Part shown: positions 37,601 to 42,254 of the stretch, piece after piece
How the letters are laid out: each line of letters starts with the position of its first letter
Numbering within the stretch: position 1 is the first letter of the stretch
Origin: Pocillopora damicornis
Lineage: Eukaryota
NCBI RefSeq assembly: GCF_003704095.1
Contig: NW_020846873.1
Location: 62,001 to 126,000, forward strand
DNA length: 64,000 nt
Reading direction: 5' to 3'
The notes under the pieces: model-generated
Told to the model about the DNA's origin: nothing
The model's input: the letters and a program-made list of their open reading frames with translations, nothing else
Databases searched by the model: none
Program-made: the position numbers and the translations under genes

Positions 37601-40600
37601 ATTTGCCTTATTTTTTCCAGAAGTAAATGATCAACATCACTTGATATATTTCAGAAGACTGCAGTAAAAAGTGAATCCTTCCAACTAAAAACCAAACAGT
37701 GAAATCTTACCTGGTCTTCACCAATCATAACCTCTTCAATCACTTTACATTCCCCAAGTTTCACAAGCTCTGGACGGCCAAATGTTGATACAATTTCTCC
37801 ACCTAAAAATATAAATAGCTGATTGAATTTTATCAAAAATTTATGAATTGACCTCTAGTTTTCAGGTACAGCACAAGTGAAGCAGTATAAGTTTAATGAA
37901 GAAAATTATTAAGGTTTACCTACCTAATACCAAAGCTAATCTCTCAACACCTTCAAAATCAGCATGTTCAATTGCCATGACACCAGCATCAGCAAATAAC
38001 TGCTCTGGATAGTTATAGATAAGTTGTCTAAGAAAAAGAAAACTCAGTAAGTTCATCTCCCATACCACTTATCAACTGTTAGTAACAGTTTTGCATTTTA
38101 CTTGAACTAACGATCCAAAAAAAAAAAAAACCACCCATACATGTAATTTTGTACATGTGTATACCCATGTATGCAAAAACTTCAACACTCACCTATTAAT
38201 AAAACAAGAAATATCGTGCTTAAGAATCATGTCCACTTTTTCTTTCATCTTATGCTGAGGAGAAAATTGCAACATGACAACTAATCAATTCCCATTTAAT
38301 TTATTTTTATAAATATTTTGACAAAATGTAATAAACTTTGAAAAAAGAGAGTACATAGCACACAGAAAGACTACTTCAGTCTTCCATGCTAAAACTGAAC
38401 CACCAAACGAAAAAACTAACCTTTTCTGCAAGCTCTAGTTCTTCTAGCTTTGCAGTTGATTCTACCCTCACTCGGGAACCAAATACCTTTTGAAAGACAA
38501 CTAAAAGTTAGTCTATGCATCTAGAAACTATAATGTTCACATGAGAGATTGGTCCAACCAAAGAAAAACCTCTCTATAAAAGGTCATTGAGCATACATTG
38601 TTCCATAACTCACCTTGATTTTATCTGCATCCATTGAAGTGTTTGCAATGAGGATCTTTGCATTTTCTATTCTTTTTGGTTGATTTACACCAATCTTCTT
38701 GTCAAGCAAAAATCCTGTTATGATAGTGAAAAGCGTGAATTTTTACTTTCAAAAACCTTTGATTCATTCAAAAAATTATCATCACTTATCAAGATTGGCA
38801 TGTTATTGACTACTACATACCTTCATCCAAGTATGAGTCAACCAGGTTTCCACCAAGTTTTTTGATGATCTGAATGGCATCCAAGTTTCCACTGCCCTGA
38901 AATTTCGAGAAAAACCAGACTTCTGTCTACATCAAACCACATGTTTCAAATGTAATCACTAATCAATGAACACTGACAAGAAATCCTAGACAAATCATTA
39001 ACAATTATCTTATCATGACCAACCAATTTACTACAGTCCCAGTACAAGTTAACTATGCCTGTCACTCAATATACTTTACTAGTATAAATTATGAAATATG
39101 ACAAGTAACAACTGTTACAATCGATATCTGGCATCCCTACAATCTGGTATCCCCTGGCAAAAACCATTAAGACATCTGATTGGTTGACTGGCCATTGCCA
39201 GCTTTTTAACTTCCTACCATTTGGAACTCTTAACCCATTTACACCCAAGATCTCATTAGTAATACTCCTTACTGTGTGCCATACAATTCTTATGATGCTA
39301 GTACTGAGAATTTGGTACTGGATCAACTAGAAATCCTCAAAATTTTAAATTTTTCTTTATTCTTGTCACCTGTTTGATTGAGATTGTATTGTTATTGTAA
39401 GGAGAAAATCTGTCTTGGTCACCCATGGGAGTTAAGGGTTAATCCTAACCATTCATTTGAACGTGTCCTTTAGTGGAATGTCGTAATGATGTGGGATATC
39501 GATCAAATGAAGCCTTTAAGTGCTACTGTGGTTCTTTCTTTATTCACTCCGAGCTTTCGCCGTTCTACGGCATCATCAGTCCCTGATGATGCCGTAGAAC
39601 GGCGAAAGCTCGGAGTGAATAAAGAAAGAACCACAGTAGCACCTAACCATTCAATTTGATTGAAGTTTACACAGAGTTTTCATTTCACACAGATATACTT
39701 ACAACTTCATGTTAAAGTGATGACCCAATCAATGAAAAAAATGCCTTAATCAAAATTGGAAGTACCAGCTACATCTATGAATTCATTGCGACATATCTGT
39801 AGAATTGATTTTACCTTAAGTCGTAACACTGCCTCAACAGCAAGAGTTGCAAAATGATCTCGATGTTGCACCAAAATTTTTGAGCTAAGTGTTGTTCTTG
39901 CAATATTCAACAAGTCCTCTTTAAATTTTTGCTCATCACTGCTGTGATCAACAGCTGCAGCCTCCAAGGCCTTCTGAGCAACTTGTACAGCTTTCCGCCA
40001 ACCAGACACAATAATCTGGGGATGTACTTTACATGACACAAGTTTTTCAGCCTCCTGATATAGAACACAGGCCAAATATTAGTACAATGTTGCAAAATTT
40101 ACATTTCAGTGATACCAATGTGAGAAGAAAGCTGAATAGTCTTTGTCATCATTACTATTGTTGTTTTTGTATTTTTCTAATCAAATATATCAAAACATAT
40201 ATTTGTTGGAAACAAAGAATAGTAATTCTAAAACTTCAATCTATAAGGGCAGTGCTCATAAACTTGTCTGTAAGATAGTTGGTCATTCATACCATCTTTG
40301 TTACAATGTAATGACAAGAGTCAATCTAACAGGGCATAATGTTGTCTCTGTTCACAATTATTTAAATTTAGATCACCTTATCTGATTCAAGACCTTGGTT
40401 ACTTATAACATTTAATACTTGCACACCATACCCGCAGCAATTCACAAGCTAGTACTGTCACACTTGTTGTGCCATCCCCAACTTCATTGTCTTGAACTTT
40501 TGATAACTCTAATTAAATGGAGAACAAAGGAAACAAGAAAGACTACTTGCAAAAAGCACACTGTCTGGATTGCAATGCTGTGGAAAGGTATTCTATCATC

Positions 40601-42254
40601 TGGCAATAGTAGAACCCCTCATTCCTCCTTAGTTGTGGTTTTGGGTCAGGTCACTTGTCTTCTCTGAACAGTTGAGCCACTCTTCATATTCAAATTCAGT
40701 AATATATAGATTTAGCCAAGCCTAAAAGCAGAGCTCGCATTTTTTCCCACACATCTCAAGGACACAACACCTTGCCCTGGCTAGAACCTGGGTCGTCCAA
40801 CTTGGAGCCCAGTGCACTGACCACTGAACTACTGAACAAAGCTGTGGCATTAGCGTGCCCGTGGTACAGTTGACCACACATGTTAAAAGTAGCATCTTGT
40901 GCAGTCATGAGGTCATACAGTCGTATGGTTGTACATCCAAATCTTTTTGGCTTGATGGGTTACTACTATTTTGTATAATTATGGGGCTACGCTCTGCGAG
41001 TTCTGCTATTATGCCCAATTGAGTGTTTGCCATGCAAGGGGTCTGACAGTTGTTTCTGTCTTATGATATCATATAAATTTTTAAAGCTACAACCTTCTTG
41101 AATAAGTTTATTATAGAACTACCTCACTTACCCACAAGAATTTTTGCAGCTGGATTATCAACTCCAATGGATTTTAGGATTGTTGCTCCGTCATTTGTAA
41201 CCTGAATTTCTTCAGCCTTGCTAAACGACTGTAGAATTTTGTCCTGAGAAGTAAATCAAACACAATTAAAGCCAAGAATAACTAGCAAAATCTACAAAAC
41301 ATAGCATGTATGGTACAAAGGATGTAACATAGTGTTTCTTTCCAACCATTTAAGCTGAAATGTCACATTAATTGTCTTGCAAATAATTTGTGAGCTCCAA
41401 ACTGATAAACACCACCCAACAGAGAAATAACAACATCCTTTATTGTGATACATTTTTAACCTGAAAATTGAGAGGGTTTTTTTAGAGGTTAATGCCGAAA
41501 TACGAAGAGTGGAACTGGAAAAGTAACCAATACAAAAGTGAAAGATTTCCAGGCTTTAGGGCGCTCACTTATGGATAATATTTTCACAAGATCGCATGTC
41601 ACAACTGTTCGTCTCTGTTTAAAAGTTTGTTCATTACAATGAGATGGAGCAAATTTACAACTTGTGGTAACAAGAAGAGAATAACTCTATGATCAAGCAT
41701 GAGAGAACACAGATTGCAAAAGCATGTAGTATACTCTACCATTCCTTTCGGACCAAGAGTGCTCTTGACGAGATCTCCAATAGCTATAGCACCAACAAAT
41801 GACGACTGAAATAATCAAAGAAAATGTATACAATGTGCTACTGCATCCACTAGTCAACACGATTGTAAGCCATCAAACGCTGGGTGTGCCAACACATTTG
41901 ATTTGACAGATTTCTGGCTTCATGCGAGAGGAAACAATTATCAAACGCAATCTTGTAAGATTTGTGATTTAAAACAAATATATATACACTGGACAGCAAA
42001 TTAGCAGCCACATAGAAAAACTTGAGTACGTTTGGCGAATAATTTAAAACAAGAAAGACAAGTCATAAAATTAAAATGTTTTCTGTGCTTACAAGACGAG
42101 CTGTTTCGGCTCTTTCCTCTTCGGCACCTTGGTTAAGAATCTGAACTGGGTTGAGGGAGACCTGAAATATAAAAAGTCGTGCACAAGAATAATCAATTAA
42201 ATTTCCTCACTTTGAGTGCAGATGAGAGTCAATGAAATAAAAGAGAATTACCAT
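34605..42254 (-). CDS. CCT2: T-complex protein 1 subunit beta (chaperonin CCT/TRiC), 17 coding exons
   Basis: The first coding exon contributes only the ATG (42254-42252). It continues [155 protein letters not shown]. Confidence 0.97.
39461..39642. mobile_element. Penelope-like element terminus in inverted duplication (perfect 60-bp palindrome) with probable target-site duplication
   Basis: Arms 39520-39579 and 39583-39642 are exact reverse complements around TCC. The direct repeat CCTAACCATTCA occurs at 39444-39455 and 39642-39653. Confidence 0.75.
39577..39617 (+). ncRNA. Minimal type I hammerhead ribozyme motif (PLE-associated); mirrored core on the minus strand
   Basis: CAGTCC-CTGATGA-T-GCCGT AGA ACGGC-GAAA-GC-TC-GGAGTG shows intact CUGANGA and GAAA core boxes, a 5-bp stem II, a palindromic AGCT stem III and UC cleavage context. 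Stem I is partial (TCC/GGA, mismatch, CA/TG). Confidence 0.7.
40768..40832 (-). mobile_element. tRNA-derived SINE head remnant
   Basis: Minus strand AGTAGTTCAGTGGTCAGTGCACTGGGCTCCAAGTTGGACGACCCAGGTTCTAGCC contains degenerate A and B boxes but no full cloverleaf. Confidence 0.45.

Follow-up and report, generated by a model that had tools for sequence, protein, structure and literature searches.

Insertion units of endonuclease-bearing (EN+) Penelope-like elements (PLEs) are the closest described counterparts of the insertion analyzed here. The published signature of PLE insertion combines an inverted, 5'-truncated copy with a one-sided tail of 30-40 bp (PMC8557442, PMC3846280), and these reports attribute this shape to self-priming or to uneven resolution, not to double priming. 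In vitro, a purified PLE protein introduces nicks in both strands of the target and extends each of them; its reverse transcriptase (RT) begins at two internal sites that bound the tail and takes uncleaved RNA as the template (PMC11167929). PLE hammerhead ribozymes with a short palindromic helix III cleave poorly and likely act as dimers (PMC4209133).

The window, a 64,000-nucleotide stretch of Pocillopora damicornis contig NW_020846873.1, contains an insertion of this kind in the gene for CCT2 (TCP-1 beta). An initial annotation made from the sequence had described a perfect 60-bp palindrome built of two hammerhead cores, flanked by a 12-bp direct repeat and located in a CCT2 intron, and this description holds. 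The inverted arms are exactly 60 bp long (39520-39579 and 39583-39642), are separated by the spacer TCC and place one CTGATGA...GAAAGCTC core on each strand; elsewhere in the 64-kb window, perfect inverted repeats whose spacer is shorter than 60 reach at most 14 bp. Copies of the 12-mer occur in the window only at 39444 and 39642. The features of the locus are listed below, with element positions numbered from the C of CUGAUGA (= 0).

38897..39814, minus strand: host intron of CCT2 (TCP-1 beta), phase 0, GT-AG
39444..39455, no strand: target-site duplication, left copy, 12 bp; single copy in the empty site of run X14
39456..39579, minus strand: long arm, inverted 3' part of the PLE pseudo-LTR (pLTR) plus tail, element 0 to +123
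39456..39489, minus strand: PLE tail, past the common short end (+86 to +92)
39520..39579, minus strand: left arm of the palindrome; hammerhead core on the CCT2 sense strand, without the 5' strand of stem I
39580..39582, plus strand: spacer TCC, short-arm element positions -3 to -1; parent sequence 5' of the core
39580..39642, plus strand: short arm, element -3 to +59; hammerhead core antisense to CCT2 that keeps 3 bp of stem I
39642..39653, no strand: target-site duplication, right copy
39815..40054, minus strand: CCT2 exon upstream of the insertion; T-complex protein 1 beta match (39815-40051), E 4e-28

The insert itself spans 39456-39641 (186 bp) and is asymmetric, with a left arm of 124 bp and a right arm of 63 bp whose last base is common to the short arm and the target-site duplication. 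The block of about 180 bp first outlined is indeed an element block between the repeats, although the 64 bp at 39456-39519 had been overlooked as element sequence. Its CpG richness within a CpG-poor gene body is confirmed (observed/expected 1.2 in the insert versus 0.19 in the remainder of 36000-41300), and the proposed youth of the insertion is supported. The short arm is identical over 63 bp to 14 other matches in the genome (15 of 54 matches, including the site at 39580-39642, reach 100% over the full query). The long arm differs from another copy, L006, by three substitutions, every one in the single-copy part. These three substitutions of the insert all fall within 39456-39519 and none in the 60-bp arms; one abolishes the ATG of the tail, and contigs of runs X1 and X2 carry the substitutions without mismatch.

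Copies elsewhere in the genome identify the parent. A search of the coral's own genome with the right arm returns 54 matches from 40 candidates, and a search with the adjoining 3' sequence (the tail query) returns 25 matches from 25 candidates. Upstream of the pLTR, several copies run into an open frame that ends in a GIY-YIG endonuclease, and in one frameshifted copy, L031, the pLTR is immediately preceded by RVT_1 (Pfam, E 6e-9) and GIY-YIG (E 2e-5). A database protein, P0001, 94% identical, contains an RT followed by a C-terminal GIY-YIG in one frame, together with a DKG motif, and read by eye it agrees with the description of EN+ PLEs in PMC8557442. Because the copies continue into GIY-YIG and RT sequence and P0001 carries both, the repeat is the pLTR of an endonuclease-bearing PLE. 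The 186-bp insert belongs to such an element, as had been suspected from the outset, and the arm search leads to the parent through L031. The family displays a pLTR with hammerhead, an inverted 5'-truncated copy, a tail at one end and a target-site duplication, all features of EN+ PLEs. The assembly yields one RT match of this family, itself 5'-truncated (150 of 175 candidates scored), and no intact full-length copy was found in the assembly.

P0001 contains a C-x4-C-x7-C motif, unlike the textbook CX2-5CxxC. This arrangement is reminiscent of Nematis, and the linker cysteines are compatible with Nematis as well as with Neptune. P0001 lacks the combination of no CCHH and DKT that marks the Hydra clade, and likewise the N-terminal endonuclease of the Naiad and Chlamys clades; these assignments were rejected. 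The tails of this family and of a sister family encode similar peptides (MLLKDTFKRL versus MLLKDNMNRL in the sister), which suggests that the tail is the start of the open reading frame (ORF), and the initial codons of the element ORF are likely contained in the CCT2-site tail. In three sister copies that run past the tail (L095, L107 and L113), a possible intron donor, a word resembling GTAAG, lies some 15 codons downstream of the ATG. More distant RT relatives (L077, L078, L082, L084, L088 and L089) have hammerhead-like motifs nearby, with a longer helix II and an AACGTT-type helix III, and represent further PLE families.

As in the Pen2a_Av and EN+ PLE units described in PMC3846280 and PMC8557442, the CCT2 stub comprises a head-to-head inverted pLTR pair with a tail at one end that overlaps the ORF start and a short target-site duplication, and its parent likewise encodes RT followed by a C-terminal GIY-YIG. 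It differs from those units in consisting of two pLTR stubs with no ORF; moreover, its short arm ends 30 nt before the usual position in its family. The stub architecture is already in print. With PAc (Poseidon of Anolis carolinensis, PMC11167929) the family shares a tail delimited by two ends that lie about 40 nt from each other, and inserted copies that keep an uncleaved ribozyme, whereas its clade features are different, with a Cys pair in the RT-EN linker; the strict pairing of long and short ends and the clustering of 5' ends set out below are not reported in the accessible part of that paper.

We compared the locus with contigs from seven DNA-type runs (four studies) and one RNA run, among 24 runs listed; the runs were picked as those containing most of the stretch, and the source sample may be among them. 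Contigs span the left junction in four of the seven DNA-type runs (X1, X2, X4 and X6, with 8 gap letters in X4). The right junction appears without mismatch in five (X1, X2, X4, X12 and X13), in contigs that extend 30 letters into the arm, a single letter fewer than the bridging rule demands. The exact palindrome centre is spanned by none of the contigs listed. Run X14 carries an empty site, joining 39443 to 39642 with 198 bases skipped and 12 letters that fit both sides; as the compared stretch started at 39420, the shorter side of the joint amounts to 24 letters, and the run is a metagenome that could represent a related species. Because this empty site has the 12-mer once, the 12-mer is a true target-site duplication. 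The insertion is missing from at least one other sample: X14 lacks the insert and other DNA-type runs show its junctions. A 2099-nt contig of run X4 (record 30) matches 39414-39552 with 8 gap letters, its remainder not being listed on the stretch, and is possibly a rearranged allele or a contig chimera.

The same contigs address the concern that an assembly or library fold-back had created the palindrome. Perfect arms and a centre that lacks a bridging contig among those listed are what such an artefact would leave. Independent runs, however, show both outer junctions, which lead into the element in opposite orientations; the empty site matches, the arms are unequal, and 18 further sites share the layout, most of them with duplications. 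We regard a fold-back artefact as extremely improbable.

Across the family, 40 sites were examined. Three of them (C1939, C1114 and C130) match in no more than 35 bp of ribozyme and were dropped, so that the counts rest on 37 sites with 56 arms. Internal breaks in C55 and C1684 were bridged by manual reading, and internal inverted pieces at C1776, C533, C2282b and the sister site L096 were excluded as arms. Outer ends fall into two groups. Short ends lie at +86 to +92 in 29 arms, with two more at +59 (the CCT2 site) and +64, and long ends at +121 to +133 in 25 arms; the short end at the CCT2 site is atypical, as only 2 of 31 short ends lie below +86. Two arms stand head to head at 19 of the 37 sites, and in all 19 a long end (+121 to +132) is paired with a short one (+59 to +92). 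Duplications of 8-16 nt flank 18 of these sites and the remaining one abuts a gap. The sister family (24 matches at 21 sites) shows the same long-plus-short pairing in 5 of 5 two-arm sites, and single-arm copies end at the same two positions (12 short, 6 long). The view of the CCT2 palindrome as a special object is not supported: it is one of 19 two-arm sites in its family, and sister palindromes gather mismatches. At three loci (L044, L045 and L046) only the 35-bp ribozyme core is common to the family and the flanks are different, with an inverted pair at one of them; these loci possibly belong to another repeat bearing the same ribozyme.

The centre junction and the arm lengths of the two-arm sites are individual, and many junctions hold 2-29 inserted bases. 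Since each site has its own centre junction, the palindrome appears to be remade at each landing, not copied whole. This bears directly on the alternative in which the palindrome is itself a mobile unit, MITE-like or retrozyme-like. The stub is small, non-coding and flanked by a duplication, its arms are multi-copy, and, like non-LTR retrozymes, it is PLE-related and bears type I hammerhead sequence (PMC7229834; bioRxiv 10.64898/2026.07.22.740005). Retrozymes are nevertheless head-to-tail tandems of at least two units, each with a complete hammerhead (bioRxiv 10.64898/2026.07.22.740005), whereas the stub is a head-to-head pair of broken ribozymes, and no tandem array is present in 38000-41000. 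With centre junctions and arm lengths that differ at every two-arm site, and a CCT2-site centre or +59 end that is unique among the 37 sites, copying of the palindrome as a unit is scarcely credible.

How the two arms relate to each other is informative. The short arm reaches at least 3 nt further 5' than the long arm at 9 of the 19 sites, including the CCT2 site, and the tail is always on the long arm; neither arm can be a plain copy of the other, because these short arms hold extra 5' sequence and the long arm holds the tail. The long arm reaches further 5' and covers the whole short arm at 7 of 19 sites, and at 3 of 19 it consists of the tail alone, breaking off at +83 to +87, the point from which the short arm extends. 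At one site (L035, G000:C548) both arms derive from one minority subfamily, recognizable by two substitutions in common and an insertion of 4 nt, which is what a single source element for both arms would produce; it is the single informative case.

Inner ends are also clustered. Thirty of the 56 fall within -10 to +3, against 1 and 5 in the adjacent 14-nt windows, and the arms recovered with the tail query, whose matches do not depend on the inner end, place 11 of 25 inner ends in the same interval. None of the 56 lies in +18 to +45, around the cleavage site at +28/+29, and ribozyme cleavage was rejected as the origin of the inner ends. We consider stalling at stem I unlikely, because the first part of the stem that RT encounters would be its 3' strand, near +45. 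A TATA-like motif lies at -35 in the CCT2-site family; of 7 sister copies, 4 have it at -31 to -35 and 3 lack it, and TATA-like words are common in AT-rich DNA. This motif about 30 nt upstream, together with the reported start of Penelope transcription within the pLTR (PMC8557442), suggests run-off at the RNA 5' end, with a putative transcription start at about -5.

The CCT2 insertion is a young, 5'-truncated EN+ PLE insertion, and we consider it probable that it was built at the site from two short nick-primed cDNAs joined head to head, and that it is inert for the host. Double priming is what we infer from junction geometry, and the junctions fit it in that the 3' ends of both arms face the target. 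In this model, the GIY-YIG endonuclease would cut the two target strands 12 nt apart. One 3' end would prime RT at the far start site, about +130 (+123 at the CCT2 site), and the other at the near start site, about +89 (+59 at the CCT2 site). Synthesis of both cDNAs would proceed through the uncleaved ribozyme and end near -10 to +3, where a transcript initiated in the pLTR most likely has its 5' end, and the two cDNA ends would then be end-joined, often with a few inserted bases, with the hammerhead as a passenger. The finding of PMC11167929 that RT start sites did not differ between strands counts against double priming, and our literature search, which covered open papers, did not find a twin- or double-priming model for PLEs.

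A second reading keeps the same element and invokes self-priming, in which a folded-back strand copies itself and the endonuclease trims the resulting hairpin unevenly, leaving the tail one-sided. Self-priming is the published account of head-to-head PLE palindromes (PMC3846280), and uneven resolution of the intermediate has been offered for the tail (PMC8557442). The 3-nt spacer has the minimal size of a loop, and the 7 of 19 sites at which the short arm is wholly contained in the long arm fit this reading too. The CCT2-site spacer, however, is part of the short arm, in which the 64 bp found solely in the long arm are missing, and 9 of 19 sites are alike in this respect. The three tail-only sites abut the short end, single-arm copies with duplications end at the same two positions, and the 2-29 inserted bases at many junctions are expected from end-joining of two ends. 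We consider self-priming rather unlikely.

Double priming has a precedent in L1. In L1 twin priming both target strands prime, the 5' segment is inverted and the two segments do not overlap. The three tail-only sites of the PLE family match this abutting geometry, whereas most PLE pairs copy the same 60-90 nt twice and begin the second copy at a fixed site. Tentatively, and with more doubt than confidence, we suggest that EN+ PLEs may in general use obligately asymmetric double priming by a dimeric RT-endonuclease, which would extend one target nick from the far RT start and the other from the near one. The short palindromes would then be run-off copies of a pLTR-initiated RNA, with the RNA 5' end a few bases upstream of the core, and the role of the palindromic helix III could lie in bringing two template RNAs together and not in cleavage. 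If so, the genome sequence of any PLE family would suffice to locate its two RT start sites and its transcription start from the stubs. The CCT2 locus itself matters little, as one young, variable intronic transposon stub, and its presence/absence site could serve as a population marker; the junction counts bear on how PLEs form inverted ends and one-sided tails, and yield predictions for the published in vitro PLE assay.

The parent motif contains the CUGANGA and GAAA boxes, an NUH site and stems I and II, with stem I formed by CTCC paired with GGAG (4 bp). Across 11 distinct parent-motif copies, 94% of 88 cells are paired, and one compensatory pair change (C-G to A-U) separates the two families; covariation lends weak support, since the sequences are related and the change is a single event. 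With the PLE hammerheads of PMC4209133 the parent shares a type I core in the pLTR, an extra base 5' of helix II, a G-C first pair of helix II and a palindromic AGCU at helix III, and it is plausibly a PLE type I hammerhead motif. A hammerhead profile search, proposed as a check, gave no Rfam hammerhead match with an E-value of 5 or less. PMC4209133 also notes motif pairs on opposite strands at distances of about 100-700 bp, whereas only 3 nt separate the CCT2-site cores, from which the 5' strand of stem I is mostly or wholly gone.

Stem I at the CCT2 site comprises 0 bp on the CCT2 sense strand and 3 bp on the plus strand, in agreement with the earlier statement that only the plus-strand core keeps a partial stem I. 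The spacer TCC was correctly seen as part of a stem I strand, but the partner assigned to it was not: the parent pairs CTCC with GGAG, not a 6-bp match to GGAGTG. Forcing the hammerhead fold is predicted to cost 46 and 56 kcal/mol relative to the hairpin at the CCT2 site, and 4 kcal/mol in the parent, which supports the proposal that the hairpin would sequester both cores; neither CCT2-site copy is predicted to fold as a hammerhead. Cleavage of the CCT2 pre-mRNA is not expected, because the sense core is without stem I, the plus-strand core is antisense and the fold penalty amounts to 46-56 kcal/mol. Loose CTGANGA...GAAA matches occur at 28415 (+), 61223 (+), 27419 (-) and 59537 (-), and none folds cleanly.

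The 60-bp hairpin predicted for the CCT2 pre-mRNA, a conceivable Dicer or ADAR substrate as first suggested, would leave with the spliced intron. A functional or selected intronic hairpin affecting CCT2, as a source of siRNA or miRNA, an ADAR substrate or a ribozyme switch, is very unlikely in our estimation. Its predicted fold on the sense strand is strong (-137 kcal/mol), the 60-bp arms have 0 substitutions versus 3 in the 64-bp single-copy part (chance about 0.04, calculated post hoc), and junctions are present in 6 of 7 DNA-type runs. Those runs, however, were selected for containing the stretch, and run X14 has the empty site. In sister palindromes the arms acquire mismatches independently, including a G to A change in the GAAA core, which points to neutral decay; gene conversion or selection holding the arms identical is not supported, as other palindromes change their arms independently. 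The best Rfam miRNA score (47 versus a gathering threshold of 99 bits) falls far under the threshold, and a miRNA precursor was rejected as hairpin-shape noise. Contigs of the RNA run X15, which as contigs carry no information on strand, ends, editing or small RNAs, are short and family-level, with none on the intron flank. The insertion is likely inert for the host. One X15 contig ends 4 letters upstream of -3, where DNA contigs continue for 16-24 letters, an observation from one study to which we attach no weight. The insert brings an AATAAA hexamer to the CCT2 sense strand (39539-39544, minus), within the predicted hairpin.

The intron also contains a very high-copy repeat of 213 bp at 39230-39442, bounded by TTAA-CCC and GGG-TTAA, which is presumably a piggyBac-type MITE. 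Summed contig depth over this repeat reaches up to 1e5-1e6, and the PLE insertion point lies 1 base from its end.
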